Shown piece by piece: positions 1,866 to 14,045 of a stretch of 64,000 nucleotides of DNA; the first letter of the stretch is position 1; the number at the start of each line of letters is the position of its first letter. The notes beneath the pieces were generated by a model, which was given only the letters and a program-made list of their open reading frames with translations, searched no databases and was not told the DNA's origin. Source of the DNA: Nitrospinaceae bacterium (lineage in GTDB: Bacteria; Nitrospinota; Nitrospinia; Nitrospinales; Nitrospinaceae); assembly GCA_965223665.1 (NCBI GenBank), contig OZ245011.1, forward strand, positions 480,001 through 544,000. The letters are read 5' to 3'. A program made the position numbers and the translations under genes.

Positions 1866-2627
1866 ATGCGTAAAATAAAAATTATATTGGAATATGAGGG
1901 GACTCAATATTGTGGTTGGCAATATCAACCGGATAGATTGTCCATACAGGAGGTTTTGGAAAAATGTTTAGAAAAAATCACCAAAGTAAAAACGGCCGTT
2001 GTGGGTTCGGGACGGACTGATTCCGGGGTCCATGCGAAAGGACAGGTGGCTCATTTTTTAACTGAATCTAAGATGACAGAACATCAATTTCAGAAAGCTC
2101 TTAATAGTCTGTTACCTCATGACATTGTGGTTCAACAAACTAAAGAAGTAGATATGAAATTTCATTCTAGAAAGTCTGCAACCAGGAAGCTTTATCGCTA
2201 CACGATTTTAAATCGTGATTATCCTTCTGCTTTAAATTGTCGTTATTCTCATTATATTGCTTCCCCTTTAAAGATAAGTGCCATGAGACAGGCAGCTAAA
2301 GAATTCCTGGGTAAGAAAGATTTTGCTTCGTTTCAAGGAGCCGGCTGTGAAGCCAAGAGTTCAGTCAGAGAAATTTATAAATTTACAATTTCAAAGGAAG
2401 AAAACTGGATTGAAATCAATATTATTGGAAGTGGTTTTTTAAAACATATGGTGAGAAATTTGGTTGGAACATTAATTGAGGTTGGGCTGGGTAAGTGCGA
2501 TGCTCAATCTGTTAGAGCCATTCTGAAGGCGAGAGATAGAAATAAAGCAGGGCCTACAGCTCCTGCACGAGGGCTGTGTCTGGTAAAAGTAAGCTATAAA
2601 AAAGGCAAAACAAAGAAAAAAGAATGA
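1866..2627 (+). CDS. truA: tRNA pseudouridine(38-40) synthase
   Basis: EYEGTQYCGWQ, GSGRTDSGVHA, GFLKHMVR, TAPARGL motifs. Confidence 0.97.
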   Translation: MRKIKIILEYEGTQYCGWQYQPDRLSIQEVLEKCLEKITKVKTAVVGSGRTDSGVHAKGQVAHFLTESKMTEHQFQKALNSLLPHDIVVQQTKEVDMKFHSRKSATRKLYRYTILNRDYPSALNCRYSHYIASPLKISAMRQAAKEFLGKKDFASFQGAGCEAKSSVREIYKFTISKEENWIEINIIGSGFLKHMVRNLVGTLIEVGLGKCDAQSVRAILKARDRNKAGPTAPARGLCLVKVSYKKGKTKKKE

Positions 2628-2705
2628 AGTCTCTAATTCCTTCCGGATAATTGCTGTATAATATCGCCTCCCAAAATTGTTAACAAAGTTAAAGAAAATT
2701 ACATT

Positions 2706-3794
2706 ATGAAAAACGAATATTCAATTGTTGTATTGCCTGGAGATGGTATAGGTCCTGAAGTCATCCGAGAAGCACAAAAAATAATCAAAGTAATCGAATC
2801 TAAACTCAACCTGAAAATTAATGCCGAAGAGAAGCTTGTTGGTGGAGCAGGGTACGATGCTACGGGCCACCCTCTACCAGATGAAACCCTTCAATCGGCT
2901 AAAAAAGCGGATGCAGTATTGTTAGGTGCTGTGGGTGGTCCCAAGTGGGAGACTATTGATTTTTCTTTAAGACCGGAAAGAGCTTTACTAGGTTTGAGAT
3001 CTCAATTGGGGTTATTTGCCAATCTTCGTCCAGCAAAGATTTTTCAAGCTTTGGCCCATGCCTCTACATTAAAGTCTGAAGTCGTAGAAGGGTTAGATAT
3101 TTTAGTGGTTAGAGAACTGACGGGTGGAATTTATTTTGGTGAACCAAGAGGAGTGGAGACCTTAAGTGACGGTTCAAAAAAAGGATTAAATACTTTAGTT
3201 TATACTCAATCTGAAGTTGAAAGAATTGCAAAGGTAGCTTTTGATGTTGCAAGAAAACGAAGTAATAAAGTTTGTTCGATTGACAAGGCCAATGTTTTGG
3301 AATGTACCGGATTTTGGCGCGAGGTAGTGACTGGAGTCCATAAGAATTATAGTGATGTTGAATTAAGCCATATGTATGTTGACAATTGCGCAATGCAATT
3401 GGTGAGATGGCCCAAGCAGTTTGACGTAATTCTTACCACAAACATGTTTGGAGATATATTGAGTGACCAAGCCTCTATGCTTACAGGATCAATTGGAATG
3501 TTACCTTCAGCGAGTTTAGGGGGGAGTACTGCAATGTATGAACCTATTCATGGAAGCGCTCCTGATATTGCTGGAAAAGATATTGCGAATCCATTAGCAA
3601 CCATCCTTTCAGTTGGTATGATGTTTAAATATTCCTTTGATCGAGAGGAAGTCAACTCGGCAATTGAGTCGGTTGTGGAATCTGTTTTAGAGGATGGTTA
3701 TCGAACTAAAGATATTATGTCTGAAGGAATGAATGAAATTGGATGTGCTGCAATGGGTGATAAAGTAGCTGAAGCTTTGGAGAAAAATCTTTAA
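2706..3794 (+). CDS. leuB: 3-isopropylmalate dehydrogenase
   Basis: [40 protein letters not shown]. Confidence 0.97.
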
Positions 3795-4801
3795 TGGAAA
3801 AGAAATTAAAATATAACGTAGCTGTTGTTGGGGCTAGCGGGGCAGTGGGAAGAACGATGATTTCCATTCTGGAGGAAAGAGATTTTCCTGTTAAGGAATT
3901 AAAGCTTCTGGCTTCAAAACGATCCGCAGGTTCCAAACTTCTATTTAAAAACCATGAAATTACTGTAGAAGAATTAAATAAGTCTTCCTTTGAAAATGTT
4001 GATATTGCATTGTTCTCCGCTGGAGCGACCATTAGTCGCGAATTTGCTCCGATTGCTGTTAAATCGGGGTGTGTTGTCATAGATAATAGCAGTGCTTTTC
4101 GAATGGATGAAAATGTTCCCTTGGTTGTACCAGAGGTGAACCCACATGCCATTGGTGAAAACCCAGAAATTATAGCCAATCCCAATTGTTCCACAATTCA
4201 AATGGTGGTAGCACTAAAACCCATCCATGATAATTATCATATCAATCGAGTTGTGGTTTCCACTTACCAATCAGTGTCAGGTTCAGGTCAAAAGGCCATA
4301 GAAGAACTAAAGAATCAGGCTGAAGATATTTTAAGTGAAAAGGCAATTGAAACGAAGGTATACCCTCACCAAATAGCTTTTAATTGTCTTCCTCATATAG
4401 ATGTATTTTTGGAAAATGGATATACCAAAGAAGAAATGAAAATGGTAAACGAAACCCAAAAAATTTTAGAGGATGACTCCATTGCTGTTTCGCCCACCAC
4501 TGTTCGAGTACCAGTATTTTATTCACATTCTGAAGCGATTAATGTTGAGGCCGATAAGGAAATTAACGTGGAAGAATTAAAAAATCTTTTATCAAATTCT
4601 AAGGGAATTTGTTTGGTGGATAATCCTGAAAATATTGAATATCCGCTAGCCACTCATGGGGCTGGGAAGGATGAGGTATTTATTGGCCGAATTCGAGGTG
4701 ATTTGAATAATCCCAAATCCGTTAATCTTTGGGTAGTTGCAGATAATTTACGGAAAGGGGCAGCACTAAATGCTGTTCAAATTGCAGAATTGCTAATATG
4801 A
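3794..4801 (+). CDS. asd: Aspartate-semialdehyde dehydrogenase
   Basis: GASGAVG, ANPNCST, YQSVSGSG, DNLRKGAALNAVQIAE. TAATG overlap with leuB. Confidence 0.97.
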   Translation: MEKKLKYNVAVVGASGAVGRTMISILEERDFPVKELKLLASKRSAGSKLLFKNHEITVEELNKSSFENVDIALFSAGATISREFAPIAVKSGCVVIDNSSAFRMDENVPLVVPEVNPHAIGENPEIIANPNCSTIQMVVALKPIHDNYHINRVVVSTYQSVSGSGQKAIEELKNQAEDILSEKAIETKVYPHQIAFNCLPHIDVFLENGYTKEEMKMVNETQKILEDDSIAVSPTTVRVPVFYSHSEAINVEADKEINVEELKNLLSNSKGICLVDNPENIEYPLATHGAGKDEVFIGRIRGDLNNPKSVNLWVVADNLRKGAALNAVQIAELLI

Positions 4802-4941
4802 ATAAAACTACTTATCCTAATTAGGAAAGATAGGGTTTTTGAATTATTTGAACTAACCTCTTCTTTACAAAAGCTTTAAATGATATAAAATTAATTATTT
4901 ACTGGTATTTTCCCTGATTTATTTTCCTAGGAAAACTGCAA

Positions 4942-7221
4942 ATGGCCGATGATTCTTCAACAAACCAACCTGACGAAATAGAACCTGATAAGGATCTTAA
5001 CAATCCGTCTTCTTTTGACCTCAATCAATTTAGAGAATTGATTGTGGTTGCTAGCCAGGAGCGTAAAAACCTCCAACTTTTGGTAGAGTATTTTGACAAT
5101 CAAACCCAAAAATTGGAAGAAAAACAGGAATTATTTGAGCAGTTTAGCCGTCAATTTCCTGAGACCTTAGAAAAATTTCAATCTATAAATGAAAGCGTTG
5201 GAGAAATCAAAGATATAGAGAACCGCGTACGAGATTTCCAAAAAGTCTCCAAAGAGTTGGAATCGAGCTATCAAGAATTAAAACGTGAATTGGATAATCT
5301 CCATATGTTAAGTGAACATGTGGACCAAAAAACTAAGGCTCTTGGCCAACAGAGAGGATTGGTAGAAAAAGCTAATGAAGATGCAGGTCGATTAAATGTC
5401 CTGGTTTGGGATATGGAATCGAAAATAAAAAAGCTTAAAGAGGAAAATAAGTTAATAAAAAATACGGATAGAAATGTCAACCGACTGGAATACATGTTAG
5501 AGGGAATTAGTAAGCAGGTTGAAGAGGTTGCTGGCTTTAAAGATATGATGAAGTCCAGTAGTAAAAATGTTGACGAAATGAAAAGTGTTATTAGCGAATT
5601 GGAATCTAAGTTAGAAAATCTTAGTCAAGAAAAAGAATTCTTGGAAAGCTACGCAAAGGATACTCATGATTTAAAGGAAACTTTAGATAATGTTCAGACC
5701 GATGCAGAAAAAATCCTTGGTCAAAATCAAATGGTCCAGGAAACATATGAGACTGTCCGGAAACTAATGCAAGATATTAAAGATTTGAAAATTGAATCAA
5801 AAAATATTTCTGTCAAAAATGAAATGATTCGAAGTATTAGTGGTCGTCTGCGTGATTTAGATGGAATGGCTGTTGAGGTAGAAAACAAGATTTCTAAAAT
5901 ACGCGATGACGGTAATATGATTCAAAGGACAGAAGAAAAAATCAATCGACTAAATACCTTTCTCATTGAGAACTTAAGTAACAAAATGAATATACTTAAG
6001 GAAGAGATGAAAAATATTGAGTCGGCAAATGACAAAATGAGCCGATTTAATGTGATTGCTGGGGAAGCTGAAGAGAAGGTTAAGCGATTTCAAGAAGAAA
6101 TTAAAAAAGCTGATCGTGTTTCCGAGTTGCTCATTAAAAATCAGGAATTGATGGAAAATACCCGGTTACAAATGGAAGAAATTTCCCGTCGGCAGCAATT
6201 GGTAGATCAGGTTGATAAAAAAATAAATGATTTGAGCTCTACGGTCATAAGCCTTGATGTCAAAATGGAATCACAAATGCAACGAAAGGCTTTAATTGAA
6301 AAATTAGAAAAAAAGGTTGATGGATTGGATTTCTTTATTGAGGAAGCAAACCTGAAAATTAATAAAGTTTCTAAAAAAATAGACTACTTGGAGAAGGTGG
6401 AAGAAAAATTAAATAACCTCGATAAAATGACAGAAGATATCGATAACAAAATTCTTGATATGACTAAGCAAAATGCAGCAATTGACGATCAAGAACGGCG
6501 TATGGGTAGTTTGAATTCTAAGCTTGGCTTATTGGAAGTTGAACTGGTTTCAAAAATTAAGGACCTGGAGGATTCCAAACAAGAAATATCCAATATTGAG
6601 GGAGTTCGTGATGACCTTGGGCAAATATTGGAAAATTTTGAGAAAAAATTTCAATCCATGAAAAAAGAGGAAGAGACGGTTGGTAAAACAGAAGAGCGTT
6701 TGAAAGAAATTGATCGAATTTATAGCGATTTAAAAATGAGACAGGAAATTCTTGAGGATAAAGAAGAAAATATCACGCATGCAGAGAAGAAAATACAATA
6801 TTTAGAAACTCTGGTATCTAATGTGGAAGATAAAATTGAGAAGATCGATAAAAGCCAAAGTAAAATTCAAAAAACTCAGTCGGCTGTTAATGAACTGGAG
6901 GGTTCAATAAGTAAGTTGACATCTGAAAAGAACCGGGTGGCTAAAGAACAGGAATATCTGGGAAAAGTATCATTTAAAATTGAAAAGCTAACATCAATTT
7001 TTGAAAGTGCTGAGGCACAAATTGAAGCGTTAGATAGTAAAATAAAGCAATTGGAGCAGGCAGAGAAGCGGATGAGCGCTTTGACAATAGTTTCTGAAGA
7101 TATCAATGTGAAGATCCAAACAATCAAAAAAGAATCGGACTTTATTGATAATTTGGGTCAACAGATTGCTGAATTAAAGTTTTTATTGAAGGAAATTGAT
7201 AGCCGAAAAAAAGAAAATTAA
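4942..7221 (+). CDS. Long coiled-coil protein with tandem 31-residue repeats, function unknown
   Basis: 759 aa, E/K/L/I rich. No Walker motif, TM segment or signal peptide. No Pro after about residue 73. Confidence 0.85.
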   Translation: MADDSSTNQPDEIEPDKDLNNPSSFDLNQFRELIVVASQERKNLQLLVEYFDNQTQKLEEKQELFEQFSRQFPETLEKFQSINESVGEIKDIENRVRDFQKVSKELESSYQELKRELDNLHMLSEHVDQKTKALGQQRGLVEKANEDAGRLNVLVWDMESKIKKLKEENKLIKNTDRNVNRLEYMLEGISKQVEEVAGFKDMMKSSSKNVDEMKSVISELESKLENLSQEKEFLESYAKDTHDLKETLDNVQTDAEKILGQNQMVQETYETVRKLMQDIKDLKIESKNISVKNEMIRSISGRLRDLDGMAVEVENKISKIRDDGNMIQRTEEKINRLNTFLIENLSNKMNILKEEMKNIESANDKMSRFNVIAGEAEEKVKRFQEEIKKADRVSELLIKNQELMENTRLQMEEISRRQQLVDQVDKKINDLSSTVISLDVKMESQMQRKALIEKLEKKVDGLDFFIEEANLKINKVSKKIDYLEKVEEKLNNLDKMTEDIDNKILDMTKQNAAIDDQERRMGSLNSKLGLLEVELVSKIKDLEDSKQEISNIEGVRDDLGQILENFEKKFQSMKKEEETVGKTEERLKEIDRIYSDLKMRQEILEDKEENITHAEKKIQYLETLVSNVEDKIEKIDKSQSKIQKTQSAVNELEGSISKLTSEKNRVAKEQEYLGKVSFKIEKLTSIFESAEAQIEALDSKIKQLEQAEKRMSALTIVSEDINVKIQTIKKESDFIDNLGQQIAELKFLLKEIDSRKKEN
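5296..7218 (+). repeat. About 20 degenerate 31-aa protein repeats plus a partial repeat
   Basis: From residue 119, 18 units of exactly 31 aa, one of 32 and one of 35, e.g. RLNVLVWDMESKIKKLKEENKLIKNTDRNVN / DLDGMAVEVENKISKIRDDGNMIQRTEEKIN / YLETLVSNVEDKIEKIDKSQSKIQKTQSAVN. Confidence 0.8.
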
Positions 7222-7333
7222 TTCATTGAAATAAATTGCATCCCAATTTGTTCCTTCACATTTAATTTTTTTAAATTCCCACCTGTAACAAAAATTCCCT
7301 TAAAACATTTTGCCCAAATTTGGAGGTTCTACT

Positions 7334-8191
7334 ATGGTAGAAAAAACATTAGGCGTGATCGGTGGAAGCGGTCTCTATAGTATGAAAGATTTAAAGGTAA
7401 TTGAAGAACGGTCTATAGAAACTCCATTTGGATCACCTTCAGATAAAATTGTGATTGGCGAAATCCAAAATACACGACTGGCATTTTTACCACGTCATGG
7501 AGTGGGGCATCGTATTTCTCCCTCCGAGATAAATTACCGCGCAAATATTTACGCCATGAAAAGTTTAGGTGTTGAAAGGATTATAAGTGTTAGTGCGGTT
7601 GGAAGTATGAAGGAAGAAATTGTTCCAGGGCACATAGTGCTTCCAGATCAATTTATCGATAGGACTTTTCGCCGAACAAGTACTTTTTTTACGGATGGGA
7701 TTGTAGGCCATGTAAGTTTAGCTGAACCGGTGTGTATGGAAGCGCACAAGCATGTTTCCAAATCCGCAAAGGAAGCTGGAGCTACTGTCCATTCCAAAGG
7801 GACCTACATATGTATTGAAGGACCACAATTTTCTACCCGGGGAGAGTCTCTGGTTTATCGAAGTTGGGGGGTAGAAGTGATTGGTATGACAAATGTAACT
7901 GAAGCAAAACTCGCACGCGAAGCGGGTCTTTGTTATGTTACTATTGCCCTGGCCACCGACTATGATTGTTGGCATGTTGAGGAAGAGCCAGTGACTTTAG
8001 AAGCCGTTATGGAAATTATGCATAATAATGTAGAATTGGCTCAGAAAATTTTAAAACAGTTAATTCAGGAACCCATATTAGATAGAAATTGTGGTTGTGG
8101 AGACGCAGCAAAAAATTCTATCGTTACTGACCGTAATAGGATTCCTCAATCAGTAAAAAATGATCTTGAACTCTTGCTAGGACCGTTATGA
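7334..8191 (+). CDS. mtnP: S-methyl-5'-thioadenosine phosphorylase
   Basis: [44 protein letters not shown] at 7334 follows GGAGG. Confidence 0.93.
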
Positions 8192-9477
8192 ATCGTCATA
8201 AATCTGAAAAACTATTTGAGACTGCAAAACAATTTATTCCAGGTGGAGTAAACAGCCCGGTACGTGCATTTAAAGCCGTTGGGGGAAATCCTCTTTTTAT
8301 AGAAAAAGCTTCAGGTTCCAGAATATTTGATGTCGATGGTAATGAGTTTATTGACTATGTGGGGTCATGGGGGCCTCTTATTTTTGGACATTCTCATCCA
8401 AAAATTGTTGAGGCAATCACTCAATATGCCCAGTTGGGAACCAGCTTTGGGGCACCTACAGAATTAGAAACTACTTTAGCGAAAAAAGTGGTTGAATCGA
8501 TCCCCTCAATTGAAACCGTTCGAATGGTAAGTTCCGGAACCGAGGCAGTGATGAGTGCTATTCGGTTAGCCCGGGGGGTTACAGATAGGGATAAAATTGT
8601 AAAATTTGAGGGCTGTTATCATGGCCACGGGGATAGTTTGTTGGTTAAAGCTGGGTCAGGACTTTTGTCATTAGGGATTCCGGATTGTCCAGGCATTGTT
8701 GAAGACTTGGCAAAGAATACTTTGACACTTCCCTTTAATGGATCTTCACAAGTACAAGAATTGTTTGAAAAAGAAGGTCAGAATATTGCCTGCCTTATTG
8801 TAGAACCCGTTGGAGGGAATATGGGAGTGGTTCCTCCGCAACCGGGATTCTTGGAATTGTTAAGAGAGATTACAAAACAATACGGATCCATTTTAATATT
8901 TGATGAAGTAATCACAGGGTTTAGGGTTTCATTGGGAGGCGCTCAAAAGTTGTTTAATATTTCCCCTGACTTAACGTGCTTGGGAAAAATTATTGGAGGG
9001 GGCTTGCCAGTGGGAGCGTATGGAGGCAAAAAAGAATTAATGGATCATATTGCTCCAACGGGTTCAGTTTATCAAGCGGGTACATTATCTGGAAATCCTC
9101 TGGCAATGGCTGCTGGTAATGCAATGGTCGACCTGTTATCACAATCCGGTGTATATGATGATTTAGAGAATAAAAGCGATACTTTGTGTAAAGGATTTCA
9201 AGCTAATGTCCAGGAACTTGGGATACCGGCAAGCTTTACTCGGATTGGTTCCATGTTTTCCATGTTTTTTACCGATCAATCCATTGTAGATTTTGAATCC
9301 GTTAAAACGGCAGACTTAGAATTTTTTGCTCGTTATTTTAATGGGATGTTAGACGAAGGAGTCTATATTGCTCCTTCACAGTTTGAGGCTGGGTTTATGT
9401 CAGCTGCGCACTCTGAAGAGGATATTCAAAAAACAGTTGAAGCTAATTATAAAGCTTTAAAAAATGCAAAAAGCTAA
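8188..9477 (+). CDS. hemL: Glutamate-1-semialdehyde 2,1-aminomutase
   Basis: [43 protein letters not shown]. Confidence 0.97.
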
Positions 9478-9492
9478 TTGTAAAAAGGATAA

Positions 9493-10779
<1,287 letters not shown>

Positions 10780-10891
10780 AGTGTCTTAATTCATATATTT
10801 TTCAATAGGTTGAGTCGTCTTCACTAAATTTCAAATTGTGAAATTTAGAGGATATTTTTTAAGATAAATAATAAATTTTTTTGGTAAGGTT

Positions 10892-11191
10892 TTGAAGAAA
10901 CCCAATAAGGCTCAGACAACTTTTTATTTGAGTTTATTTATGTTTTTGTTGGTCCTTGTTGTAGCAACTTTTGGCGACAAGGGAGTGGTAACTGTTTATA
11001 AATTTAAGAGTGAACTCAATCAACTGAAAAGTTTAAATAAAAATCTCACCACAGAGAACCTAAAGCTGAAAAACGAAATTGCTGCTTTAAAATCCGACCC
11101 CTTTGCAGTTGAAAAGGTGGCCAGAGAAAAATTAAATCTGGTCAAGGCTGGAGAAGTTATTTATCAGTTTGTTCCCTCCTCAAAAAATTAG
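10892..11191 (+). CDS. ftsB: Septum formation initiator FtsB/DivIC
   Basis: TM helix, FGDKG, coiled coil, EKVAREKLNLVKAGE. Conserved position after eno. Confidence 0.85.
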   Translation: MKKPNKAQTTFYLSLFMFLLVLVVATFGDKGVVTVYKFKSELNQLKSLNKNLTTENLKLKNEIAALKSDPFAVEKVAREKLNLVKAGEVIYQFVPSSKN

Positions 11192-11687
11192 CCTGAAATG
11201 GCAATTAAAATTTTATTTTTACCCTTCCTGTTAATTTGTTAAAATTTAAAGTAATTTATTGAAAACAAAGGCCTTATGAAGATTTTTTTGTTTCTCATGG
11301 AAATTTTTAAAACCATTGAAAAATAGGCGCTTACACGGGTTGTTCCCTTCGATTTTGGAGTTATATGTGGGTTAAACTGCCAAAAAATCAAAAATTTCCA
11401 AGGATTTTTTCATTAACCTATTGATATTTTTGTAATAAATGGTAGAGTATATACATCCAAATAAATAGGGGGAAAACTTTGGAGGAGACAATACTCTGTA
11501 AAGAGAATCTCTGAAAAAGGGAATTAAGGTTCTTGGCGCCTTGAATCGAAAGCTAGTCAATATATTTATTTCAAGTTGCTTAAAGCATCTGGCAAATCTT
11601 ATTTCTAGCTGAAATTTCGTTTAGGTACAAAGTCCTAAATTCTTGAGAAAAATAGTTTTACTATCATTTCATTGATAAGGAGGAAGC

Positions 11688-11972
11688 ATGACCAAGCAAG
11701 ACATTATTAATCATGTTTCACAGGAAGCCAGCTTATCTCGTTCTAAAGCGGAAGAAGCAGTTGAAACTGTGATCAAATTGATTAAAGAGTCCCTGGGTCA
11801 AGGTGAACCAGTAATTTTACGTCGTTTTGGGACGTTTCAAGTGAAGCAAAAAACCAAACGGATGGGACGGAATCCAAAAACTGGAGAAGAGGCTGAAATT
11901 ACAGCCAGGAAAGTTGTGCGATTTAAGTCTGGTAAGCATTTTAAACAGGCTGTGAATGACGACGAAAATTAA
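11688..11972 (+). CDS. HU/IHF-family DNA-binding protein
   Basis: MTKQDII, FGTF, GRNPKTGEE, VRFKSGK. Strong RBS AAGGAGG. Confidence 0.95.
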   Translation: MTKQDIINHVSQEASLSRSKAEEAVETVIKLIKESLGQGEPVILRRFGTFQVKQKTKRMGRNPKTGEEAEITARKVVRFKSGKHFKQAVNDDEN

Positions 11973-11986
11973 TGCTAAGTTTATAG

Positions 11987-13024
11987 TTATAGGATAAGCA
12001 TGGCATCACCATAACTATAAAACCGGTATTTTTTTTGAATTGCCTGTTGATATGCCTTTTGAATAAGGGATGGACTGCCAAAAGCGCAAACTAATAAATA
12101 TAGACTTGATTTTGGTAAATGAAAGTTAGTTATTAAGTGGTCTGTATTTTTAAAAGTTTGGCCTGGATAAATAAAGCGTTCCGTCCAATCACCATATGGA
12201 TTTTTTCGGTTGGATTGAATATCAATTGACTCCAAGACTCGGGTTGTCGTAGTCCCTACAGAAAGAATTTTTGTTTTTTGTTGTTTTGTTTGAAAAAGAG
12301 TATTCCAAGTTTGTGAAGAAATTTGGAAATACTCTTTTTTCATTTTATGTTGAGTTATATTTTCTGTTCGAATGGGTTGGAAAGTTCCAGGTCCTACTTG
12401 AAGTGTCAAAAAAGTCATTTGAAATTTTGATTTTAGACTCTCCATCATTGAATCTGAAAAATGAAGACCTGCCGTCGGTGCGGCGATAGACCCTGGGAAT
12501 TTGGCAAATACCGTTTGGTATCTTTCCTTATCCAAAGCCTCTAATTGATCATCCCCAACATTTCTTCGAATGTAGTGGGGTAGTGGAAACCTTCCAATGG
12601 TATTCATAAGTTGTTGCACATCAACTTCATCTGAAAATTGAAGAATGCCTAGATCTTCCTTTTTTTTCAAAAAAGTCGCGCAACAATTTGGGCTAAACTC
12701 AATGACATCCCCTGATTTAAACTTTCCTAAACCCTTAACCAATATAGACCAGGTTTTTGGTTTGATTTCTTCTACCAGTAAAATTTCTGAAACTCTTTTA
12801 GTATTTTTCCAAACTCCAATGATTTTAGCGGGAAGTACTTGGGTATTATTAAAAACGAGAAGGGGTTTGGTTTTTAAATAGTTGGGTAAAGAGGAAAACT
12901 GATCGTCATAAATATTGCCTGTCTTTCTTTCTATGACCATTAAACGAGATTGCCCTCGTTCGGGACTTGGTTTTTGGGCGATTAAACTCTCAGGCAATTC
13001 GAAATCAAAATCTGATAACTTCAT
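11987..13024 (-). CDS. queA: S-adenosylmethionine:tRNA ribosyltransferase-isomerase
   Basis: MKLSDFDFELPESLIAQ start (13024), AAPTAGLHF, VGTTTTRVLE, TNFHLPKSS, YRFYSYGDAMLI. Confidence 0.95.
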   Translation of the reverse strand: MKLSDFDFELPESLIAQKPSPERGQSRLMVIERKTGNIYDDQFSSLPNYLKTKPLLVFNNTQVLPAKIIGVWKNTKRVSEILLVEEIKPKTWSILVKGLGKFKSGDVIEFSPNCCATFLKKKEDLGILQFSDEVDVQQLMNTIGRFPLPHYIRRNVGDDQLEALDKERYQTVFAKFPGSIAAPTAGLHFSDSMMESLKSKFQMTFLTLQVGPGTFQPIRTENITQHKMKKEYFQISSQTWNTLFQTKQQKTKILSVGTTTTRVLESIDIQSNRKNPYGDWTERFIYPGQTFKNTDHLITNFHLPKSSLYLLVCAFGSPSLIQKAYQQAIQKKYRFYSYGDAMLIL

Positions 13025-13190
13025 GATAAAATAAGGGTATTTATATCGGAAATTTTTGAGGTTTCTCTTTGTTTTATAAAGGTTTTTCAGCCATTTAAAG
13101 GAATTTTGAGGTTGACCTCTTTTTGTAAATATTATATTCTTCGCTGACGTCCAGAGTTTAGAACAAAAACCGTAAAAGTCCAAATAGGGT

Positions 13191-14045
13191 ATGAAAACAA
13201 TGAAAAATTTTAAAACCGTAGGATTGCTATTTTTATCAGCCCTTCTTGTTTTCCTTGGAGGCGTGGATTCTGCTAATGCTAAAAAGAAAAAGATTCCTAA
13301 AAAACCCAGTTATGTTGGGGCAGCAAAATGTAATGGAAGTTGTCACGACCCTTATTACCAAGCGTGGAGAAATTCTCCACATGGCAAGACTTTTGACATT
13401 TTAAAAGCAGGTGAAAGGGCAGATGCAAAAAAGAAAGCCAGCCTGGACCCTGAAAAGGACTACACAACAGATCCAATGTGTTTACGGTGTCATACCACCG
13501 GATACCGCCAAAAAGGTGGTTTCAAACCCGCGGGCAGTAAAAAGAAAGGTAAGGATATAAGCACCAAAATTGATCCGGAAGAACCTAGTTTAGAGCAGGT
13601 AGGTTGTGAGATGTGCCACGCCGCTGCTGGAGGAGCCCAATTCCGAGTGGTTATGAAAAATACAAAGGGCGACTTTAAAAAGAAAGATACTGAGAAATAT
13701 GGACAACGTTGGGATTATGCTAACGTTTGTACGCGCTGTCATAATCACCCTAAAAACCCTCATAATGAAAAGTTAGATGCAAAATATGCTTTTGATTATG
13801 AAAAGAAAAAAGGGGAAGTCCATCCTTATGAAAAATTTCTCTCTGAAGACAATGCGGATCAGAATATTGTTGCGGATGGAAAAGTGAAAGATCGTGCAAA
13901 AGTAAAAGCGAAGTCTGAGGAAAAACCCTTGAGAATTGAAGACTTCGAAATCAACGATAAAGGAAAACTTAAATTTGTTAAGAAAACTCGCCCTTATAAA
14001 TACAGCAAAAAGAAAAAGAGAGGAAAATTTTATTATCAAAAATAA
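13191..14045 (+). CDS. Periplasmic tetraheme cytochrome c554-family protein
   Basis: Sec signal (..SANA). Heme motifs CNGSCH, CLRCH, CEMCH, CTRCH. Segments AKKKASLDPEKDYT, QKGG, VGCE and DAKYAF resemble Nitrosomonas c554 as I recall it. Confidence 0.85.
   Translation: MKTMKNFKTVGLLFLSALLVFLGGVDSANAKKKKIPKKPSYVGAAKCNGSCHDPYYQAWRNSPHGKTFDILKAGERADAKKKASLDPEKDYTTDPMCLRCHTTGYRQKGGFKPAGSKKKGKDISTKIDPEEPSLEQVGCEMCHAAAGGAQFRVVMKNTKGDFKKKDTEKYGQRWDYANVCTRCHNHPKNPHNEKLDAKYAFDYEKKKGEVHPYEKFLSEDNADQNIVADGKVKDRAKVKAKSEEKPLRIEDFEINDKGKLKFVKKTRPYKYSKKKKRGKFYYQK

Follow-up and report, generated by a model that had tools for sequence, protein, structure and literature searches.

The gene examined here, called X, lies at 4942..7221 (+) of a 64,000-nt window (contig OZ245011.1 of assembly GCA_965223665.1, positions 480,001 to 544,000) from a Nitrospinaceae bacterium. 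Its product, protein P0001, is almost wholly helical and is built on a 31-residue repeat that distant relatives in other phyla keep in the same register. The family is not in Pfam and matched no characterised family, and it is unusual both in its 31/9 periodicity and in the conservation of that register. An original prediction, made from the letters of the DNA, took the product for a long coiled-coil rod, and this rod or scaffold reading is supported. We hold it roughly an even chance that P0001 is a cytoplasmic, non-enzymatic structural rod, and a filament tied to cell shape or division, also suggested in the original prediction, is offered as a hypothesis only. The open reading frame itself is sound: it starts with ATG and encodes 759 amino acids (aa) and a stop with no internal stop, as had been predicted, and the opposite strand of 4942..7221 is closed by many stops. 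X is a single-copy gene in its genome.

First, the repeat was evident by several measures. The autocorrelation of I, L, M, F and V residues has its maxima at lags 31 (0.465), 62 (0.358) and 93 (0.332), and the strongest Fourier period is 3.463 residues, against 3.444 for 31/9. Over lags 8-59, the highest autocorrelation reached in each of 2000 residue shuffles had a mean of 0.080 (standard deviation 0.017, maximum 0.158), and in 2000 shuffles of heptad blocks the value at lag 31 had a mean of 0.000 (standard deviation 0.037, maximum 0.145). The 31-residue peak is thus far above the shuffles. Mean BLOSUM62 similarity by lag also tops at 31 (0.423), followed by 62 (0.377). A DNA-level tandem repeat of 93 bp was looked for in the gene and none was found. 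The units were parsed by dynamic programming on hydrophobicity averaged over 44 Nitrospinota orthologues. Starting at residue 29, their lengths are 31, 31, 28, eight times 31, 32, three times 31, 35 and seven times 31, followed by a 16-residue end piece; the pattern therefore spans residue 29 to the end in about 23 full units. The original prediction had counted 20 units from residue 119. Those 20 consecutive units (18 of 31 residues, one of 32 and one of 35; residues 119-743, 5296..7170, +) and the 16-residue partial unit after them were recovered by periodicity, parse and position profile, but the start was placed too late, since the pattern is already present from residue 29. Units of P0001 are 14.9% identical to one another over 210 pairs, against 6.7% out of register, and orthologous units across Nitrospinota are 26-84% identical. 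From these values the repeats are old, and each keeps its own identity and place.

The position profile was calculated as the hydrophobic fraction at each unit position over 21 units of the 44 orthologues. The fractions are 0.92 at position 2, 0.83 at 5, 0.64 at 6, 0.72 at 9, 0.65 at 13, 0.89 at 16, 0.97 at 23, 0.39 at 26 and 0.82 at 30. The hydrophobic seam includes the pairs 5/6 and 22/23, and position 19-20 is consistently polar. Lys or Arg accounts for 62% of residues at position 12 and 46% at position 29. The hydrophobic positions read by eye (about 2, 6, 9, 13, 16, 23, 26 and 30) and the Lys at 12 and 29 match this profile. The coiled-coil assignment is d=2, a=6, d=9, a=13, d=16, a=20 (polar), d=23, extra residues 24-26 and a=30. 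The unit fits four heptads plus one 3-residue stammer (4x7+3), which agrees with the earlier reading of 31 as heptads with a regular stammer and a periodicity of 3.44. According to coiled-coil theory, the local periodicity drops at a stammer and left-handed supercoiling becomes stronger. Passages of one source likewise state that stammers increase left-handedness, and further that the great majority of the non-heptad coiled coils known lie above 3.5 in periodicity, that values below 3.5 are rare yet allowed, with 10/3 taken as the lower limit, and that known stammers are absorbed by short 3-10 segments (PMC4786415). A sustained 31/9 (3.44) periodicity is a regime hardly populated among known coiled coils, and structural biology would have in P0001 a natural example on which sustained overwinding of a coiled coil could be studied.

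Second, the predicted structure is that of a long rod. The AlphaFold2 model, from an alignment of 44 sequences, has helices at residues 27-186, 190-457 and 464-758, so that 723 of 759 residues are helical, with a mean predicted local distance difference test score (pLDDT) of 71.8. A Foldseek search of this model against PDB gave no match at E <= 0.001. VIA-align, run over about 48,000 chains, returned only single long coiled-coil helices, each aligned to one helix of the model: tropomyosin 7ko4_P at Z 10.2 (model residues 190-460, root-mean-square deviation 43.7 over 271 residues), BICDR1 6f1t_X at Z 10.0 (model residues 474-758) and lamin coil 1b 6snz_A at Z 7.8. A PDB search with a sequence profile found 10 chains at E 0.002-0.01, all of them generic coiled coils. 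A complex prediction for two copies of residues 464-758 scored 0.00 (mark 0.42) and counts neither for nor against a rod. Since the VIA-align matches are to single helices only, the model is taken as extended and not as a hairpin, bundle or solenoid; a folded helical-bundle solenoid had been named as one outcome that would refute the rod, and no hairpin, bundle or solenoid match stood out. The long helical rod of the original prediction is thus supported by about 730 residues of near-continuous helix in AlphaFold and by PDB matches of the same kind.

Third, the rod is not confined to Nitrospinota. A family search that scored 1.84 billion representative proteins gave 300 matches at E <= 0.001, of which 109 reached E <= 1e-10. 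Many of them are about 900 aa long and align end to end with P0001 at 17-23% identity. Where their records carry names, these are 'hypothetical protein' or 'chromosome segregation ATPase', from Fibrobacterota and Longimicrobiales. The ESM Atlas clusters nearest to P0001 occur most often in Acidobacteriota, Gemmatimonadota and Eiseniibacteriota. Of 72 family proteins with at least 650 aa, 64 have their highest autocorrelation at lag 31 (10 of the 72 are near-identical and belong to one cluster). Lengths are narrowly kept, at 888-917 aa in 50 of 54 distant relatives and 754-765 aa in 40 of the 44 aligned Nitrospinota orthologues; the latter are 33-57% identical to P0001, in an alignment with a mean column identity of 67% and hardly any gap. 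When the 44 Nitrospinota proteins were compared with the 54 long forms by hhalign, the match had a probability of 100 and an E value of 2.7e-50 over 646 colinear columns (Nitrospinota 112-761 against 228-874), interrupted by gaps of one and three residues. This colinearity with two small gaps indicates that repeat number and register are ancient. Both groups share a motif near the N-terminus (ELxxLIxxAxxERxxL), another at residues 119-167 (LNxLAEHVxxKxKxL ... RLNxxVWxMDxxIxKLxE), a central block with Asp-Gly and a C-terminal L(K/x)F motif. As a rule, the length and sequence of long coiled-coil proteins drift fast. A rod of about 650 residues that keeps its repeat number and register across phyla, at a periodicity below 3.5, is unusual in this respect. 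For bacterial cell biology, it represents a widespread family outside Pfam and a candidate scaffold or ruler.

The conserved parts are spread along the whole protein. Residues 1-28 (4942..5025, +) form an acidic, Pro/Ser/Asn-rich non-helical head with AlphaFold pLDDT below 50 for residues 1-25, in agreement with the short acidic N-terminal tail first described. Three N-proximal units of 31, 31 and 28 residues follow in the unit parse (residues 29-118, 5026..5295, +); they hold the motif ASQERKNLQLLVEYF, common to the ~900-aa relatives as ELxxLIxxAREERxAL, and Pro73 within them is nearly invariant. Residues 119-180 (5296..5481, +) are the cross-phylum signature block, LHxLSEHVxxKxKxL ... RLNVLVWDMxSKIKKLKEE, which contains the only Trp of P0001 and whose two units have orthologous identities of 0.67 and 0.71. 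The most conserved block is at residues 430-491 (6229..6414, +; orthologous identities 0.84 and 0.73); it has invariant columns in the orthologue alignment and reads DLSSxVISLDVKMExQMQRKALIEKxEKKVDGLDFFIEEANxKI. Within it, the conserved Asp460-Gly461 sits at the AlphaFold helix break 458-463, and DG is also kept in the ~900-aa family. Alignment and parse end with a partial last unit at residues 744-759 (7171..7218, +), marked by a conserved ELKFLLxE. No signal peptide, ATPase or other globular Pfam domain was found in P0001, and no transmembrane (TM) segment, the maximum Kyte-Doolittle mean over 19 residues being 0.65. The earlier statement that the protein lacks an ATPase head, a hinge, a TM segment and a signal thus holds by Pfam, NCBIfam and Kyte-Doolittle.

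From these features a mechanism can be proposed. After the 28-residue acidic head, about 730 residues would form a near-continuous alpha-helix with a strict 31-residue seam, and the seam would be buried by pairing with like helices, probably as a homo-oligomeric and more tightly left-handed coiled coil. The axial rise of a helix is about 0.148 nm per residue. At this rise, the rod would measure roughly 100 nm, and one axial period would take up about 4.5 nm. The regular stammers may act as a register lock, so that pairing would be allowed in register or shifted by whole 31-residue steps only; such a lock would favour one defined rod or a staggered lateral assembly. In passages of one source, the phase of a stammer is described as able to enforce partner and register specificity (PMC9369452). 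The conserved blocks at residues 29-48, 119-167 and 420-490 and the C-terminal ELKFLL are likely sites of self-contact, end-to-end or lateral, or of partner binding. About 21 units each have their own orthologue across phyla, with hardly any indels, so that rod length and block positions appear to be under selection. A frozen length with individually conserved units suggests that position along the rod matters, as it would in a lattice or filament of staggered rods, or in a ruler or tether.

Several results weigh against the structural rod, or at least against a simple essential cytoskeleton. The AlphaFold models have low predicted template modelling scores (pTM), 0.21 for P0001 and 0.26 for P0016, a ~900-aa form. 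The P0016 model (54 sequences, mean pLDDT 63.0) breaks at residues 215-241, 402-415 and 589-602, and these breaks do not coincide with those of P0001 (187-189 and 458-463); since the two family models break at different places, hinges are uncertain. A charge-stagger analysis of P0001 found no preferred parallel or antiparallel stagger of the kind seen in myosin or intermediate filaments. The seam is broad, taking in positions 5+6 as well as 22+23, and beta-branched residues are frequent at d positions 9 and 23, both of which are unlike a simple parallel dimer. Moreover, no conserved partner gene across phyla was found when the Nitrospinota gene row was compared with 25 metagenome loci of the family. 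Finally, the gene has been lost in some lineages of Nitrospinota. In the single-contig genome G024, asd and mtap are separated by about 830 bp with no trace of X; G021 retains only the last 70 codons of X between asd and mtap; and in genus g2, 7 of 11 genomes gave no match, and G012, G016, G018 and G020 have a short form (~646-700 codons) that lacks the signature block.

In a profile search of the phylum genomes, X was present in 83 of 120 genomes and 27 of 30 genera; of the 57 genomes with a completeness of 90% or more and a contamination of 5% or less, 47 have it. Being missing from some complete genomes, X is not an essential core cytoskeletal element. Three of the 44 aligned orthologues are 688 aa long, being shorter by about 65 residues, with the signature block among those missing. 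This 688-aa sub-lineage belongs to genus g2, and together with the absences there it may point to relaxed selection toward loss. The 688-aa variants (loci L005, L006, L008, L051, L055 and L066) share an in-frame loss of ~65 residues that removes AEHV ... VWDMD. The family thus includes natural knock-outs, that is, complete Nitrospinota genomes in which the gene is deleted, as well as a membrane-anchored variant, described below.

A flagellar link of X was considered and rejected, because the presence of X does not follow that of the flagellar export gate FlhA (PF00771) across the 120 genomes. X is present and FlhA was not found in G027, G036, G039 and G075, which are 93-98% complete (G039 and G075 are single contigs); FlhA is present and X was not found in G002 (a single contig), G006, G009, G015 and G076. 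G024 lacks both, and G021 has the remnant of X together with an FlhA frame with in-frame stops. As a separate observation, FlhA was found in 93 of 120 Nitrospinota genomes, several genomes of genus g6 that are complete or nearly so lack it (among G024, G027, G036, G039 and G075), and the stop-bearing frame of G021 is at C5:292151-293624. From FlhA being missing or interrupted in genus g6, flagella are apparently being lost there.

The strongest competitor of a self-polymerising filament is a fixed-length ruler or tether, to which we would assign perhaps one chance in four. P0001 would then be a dimeric or trimeric rod that lies along a periodic polymer or bridges two structures, and each 31-residue unit, about 4.5 nm long, would be one equivalent binding site. 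Tropomyosin on actin is such a side-binding rod with equivalent sites. The conservation of length and register across phyla with almost no indels, and the individual orthology of every unit, suit a ruler; the conserved motifs at the ends and in the centre could serve for docking, and the charge-stagger signal for paracrystalline self-assembly is absent. The ~900-aa relatives add a further hint. They have about 115 extra N-terminal and about 35 extra C-terminal residues, and start, within residues 1-10, with a conserved M-L-D-[AST]-[FIL]-[KF]-[KR] (MLDAFKK) that runs into a Gly/Ser-rich linker; together they have the look of a tethering motif. This peptide is only moderately amphipathic, with a mean hydrophobic moment of 0.50 against 0.38 in control windows. 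It may be similar in flavour to the conserved C-terminal peptide of FtsZ and to N-terminal amphipathic membrane-targeting helices. However, the Nitrospinota proteins lack the MLDAFKK peptide, no partner has been identified, gene neighbourhoods differ between phyla, and the phyletic pattern does not follow FlhA, the one machine tested.

It is rather unlikely, at something like one chance in eight, that the chain folds back on itself into an antiparallel rod, as a two- or three-helix bundle with its turn at Asp-Gly 460-461 and perhaps another near residue 188. The protein would then resemble a headless SMC/Rad50 arm, or a chemoreceptor hairpin with a conserved functional tip. The most conserved block does surround the AlphaFold break 458-463, the helices at 190-457 (268 aa) and 464-758 (295 aa) are similar in length, and a bundle of three or more helices would accommodate so broad a hydrophobic seam well. 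Covariation summed along anti-diagonals has a weak bump centred at about 445-446 (z ~3.2), but for about 1000 tested diagonals it is within chance (162 sequences, effective number 73). In addition, AlphaFold left the helices unpacked at pTM 0.21, the structural matches are single helices with none spanning a hairpin, and the P0016 model has no break at the corresponding position. The arms that meet at residue 461 also differ in length, with 429 residues on one side and 295 on the other; in the ~900-aa form they have about 560 and 310.

A more specific form of the ruler, which we regard as improbable, is that the family counts the subunits of a cytoskeletal or envelope polymer with ~4.5-nm spacing. 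FtsZ and FtsA, whose protofilaments have a subunit spacing of about 4.4-4.8 nm, would be the candidates. If true, it would explain why length and register are frozen from Nitrospinota to the ~900-aa relatives. Least probable of all, and very unlikely, is a membrane-coating, surface or secreted fibrillar protein (a PspA/Vipp1-like coat, an S-layer stalk or an adhesin): although the generic helical matches include Vipp1 (8qhv_0, Z 7.0) and envelope genes adjoin some relatives (SLT+LysM in 5, M23 in 3 and TPR+SLH in 4 of 25 loci), 71 of 72 long family proteins have no signal peptide or TM segment, the rod of the one anchored relative is on the cytoplasmic side, size and repeat architecture are unlike PspA/Vipp1, and the neighbours vary by lineage.

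Searches of Pfam, NCBIfam and PDB profiles, which could have brought the novelty of P0001 into question, gave no clear match to a characterised family. The only curated model passed is NCBIfam SpiroCoCo_C (NF047515), whose cut-off is 125 bits and for which P0001 scores 166.2 bits. All 44 Nitrospinota orthologues have it as their best NCBIfam match at E <= 1e-10, and all 19 distant relatives tested have it as their top match. The total adds up 3-6 overlapping stretches in which repeat matches repeat, of which the best single one in P0001 gives 52 bits. These stretches lie within profile positions 2 to about 264 of 313; those listed end at or before position 253 in P0001, and at or before 264 in relatives' frames of ~650-800 aa, so that among them the C-terminal end of the profile (positions ~265-313) has no match in P0001 or orthologous frames. 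SpiroCoCo_N (NF047514) gave 70.3 bits, below its cut-off of 75. Like P0001, the SpiroCoCo proteins and the LA_3659 family (NF047516) are long helical rods without known function. On this comparison, made through NCBIfam profiles, P0001 is filed as sharing the rod type of SpiroCoCo and not as a member. A search of the literature library found no paper on SpiroCoCo, LA_3659 or a 31-residue coiled-coil repeat, and another on a coiled-coil cytoskeleton of Nitrospina found nothing relevant among the papers listed. The Pfam matches are coiled-coil cross-matches only. Among them, BLOC1_2 (PF10046) gave 49.6 bits against a gathering threshold of 33.4, with its best stretch at residues 41-116. No single stretch passes E <= 0.001, so this score is a sum over weak repeat matches. 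At E <= 0.001, BLOC1_2 was matched by 39 of the 44 orthologues and, among the 54 distant relatives, by 52, and the PDB profile search found no BLOC-1 chain. This eukaryotic family is a likely source of misleading automatic names, for example in Atlas clusters.

Among characterised proteins, the nearest functional analogues may be the bacterial intermediate-filament-like proteins. Crescentin, FilP and Scy are described as proteins of this kind, rich in coiled coils, in the abstracts of two sources (PMC6599971, PMC2680258). They have in common with P0001 a short non-helical head, a very long coiled-coil rod, a cytoplasmic setting and no nucleotide-binding domain, and by analogy P0001 could work as they do, by cofactor-free self-assembly into a mechanical scaffold. 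However, there is no sequence relation: Pfam Rod_CreS (PF19220) did not match P0001 at E <= 0.01 and matched one of the 54 distant relatives (4.8e-5). In crescentin the heptads are interrupted by a stutter, and Scy and FilP have a 51-residue hendecad-rich repeat (above 3.5). P0001 differs from them in its 31-residue stammer repeat (3.44) and in a length fixed across phyla. Like P0001, tropomyosin and SF-assemblin have an unbroken coiled-coil helix, a super-period over heptads and a conserved length. The 7ko4_P match to tropomyosin is a likeness of long helices only, the period of P0001 is 31 and not ~39.5 or 29 (SF-assemblin has a 29-residue repeat), and no PDB chain was better than E 0.002. 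The likeness to SMC and Rad50 is compositional, at 50-56 bits; the SMC/Rad50/MukB models of NCBIfam gave P0001 17-56 bits against cut-offs of 567-1087, and no Pfam domain for an ABC-type ATPase head, hinge or zinc hook was found in it. The 'chromosome segregation ATPase' names on relatives are thus mis-annotation by coiled-coil similarity. PADLOC and PHROGs gave coiled-coil cross-matches only (LmuB, JetC and tape-measure proteins).

The cellular setting of the rod can be judged from its relatives. One of 72 long family proteins, P0071, has a TM-like segment. This protein of 1163 aa has a signal peptide, a TolB-like propeller, a Pro-rich linker and a TM helix with RRRGR, followed by a rod of 31-residue repeats that carries the family signature LxxLVEHI ... 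IIKDMDAKI. The order of signal peptide, propeller and TM helix followed by RRRGR places this rod on the positive-inside, cytoplasmic face of the membrane, which argues for a cytoplasmic, possibly membrane-proximal setting of the family rod. As a variant that spans the membrane, P0071 would connect the periplasm with a rod in the cytoplasm.

The metagenome neighbourhoods were taken from 26 loci chosen for long flanks, of which 25 were analysed (one had no called target reading frame), with 76 neighbour frames. The neighbours fall into lineage-specific sets, none of which shares genes with the Nitrospinota row. One set has a divergent gene for a ComM/YifB-like Mg-chelatase in 10 loci, SLT+LysM in 5 and an M23 peptidase in 3; another has TPR+SLH in 4 loci, CDP-alcohol phosphatidyltransferase in 2, an epimerase in 3 and a sugar transferase in 2. 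In the ComM/YifB loci (L085, L089, L094-L097, L100, L102, L105 and L112), the family gene is always divergent from the ComM/YifB-type ATPase gene. In this lineage of the ~900-aa family, a convergent gene for an SLT+LysM lytic transglycosylase is often next, with an M23 peptidase nearby.

In Nitrospinota, X lies in a conserved gene row with the order truA-leuB-asd-X-mtap-aminotransferase (class III)-eno-ftsB-HU, after which queA is on the opposite strand. The row is kept wherever contigs reach; of 59 loci, 48 have asd, 56 mtap, 52 eno and 34 ftsB. Loci L044, L045 and L065 have the same asd-X or leuB-asd-X-mtap neighbours, and L010 is 97% identical. The core-genome context noticed at the outset is thus real, as synteny puts X in a conserved housekeeping row across the phylum. 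The fourth gene downstream of X is indeed ftsB (10892-11191, matching DivIC of Pfam), as had been pointed out. Its proximity follows from the frozen housekeeping order, in which ftsB adjoins eno, and not from an operon with division genes. A functional link between X and ftsB is therefore not supported by the gene arrangement. Gamma- and betaproteobacteria place the polar hub gene fimV/hubP beside asd and truA, which may be a positional parallel to X, and a literature search for fimV, asd and truA together found no paper.

Upstream of X, the 140-bp spacer after asd contains a promoter-like TTTACA-16-TAAAAT (4864..4891, +) with 10 of 12 matches. This is weak evidence only, and a scan of the region gave 5 such sites against 10.2 expected from shuffles, not above chance. 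The housekeeping row as a whole covers eleven genes at 1866-13183 of the window and is nearly unchanged across the phylum. At its end, beside queA, a gene at 13191-14045 (+) encodes a 284-aa multihaem cytochrome (Pfam matches to Cytochrome_C554, Cytochrome_C7 and paired CXXCH).

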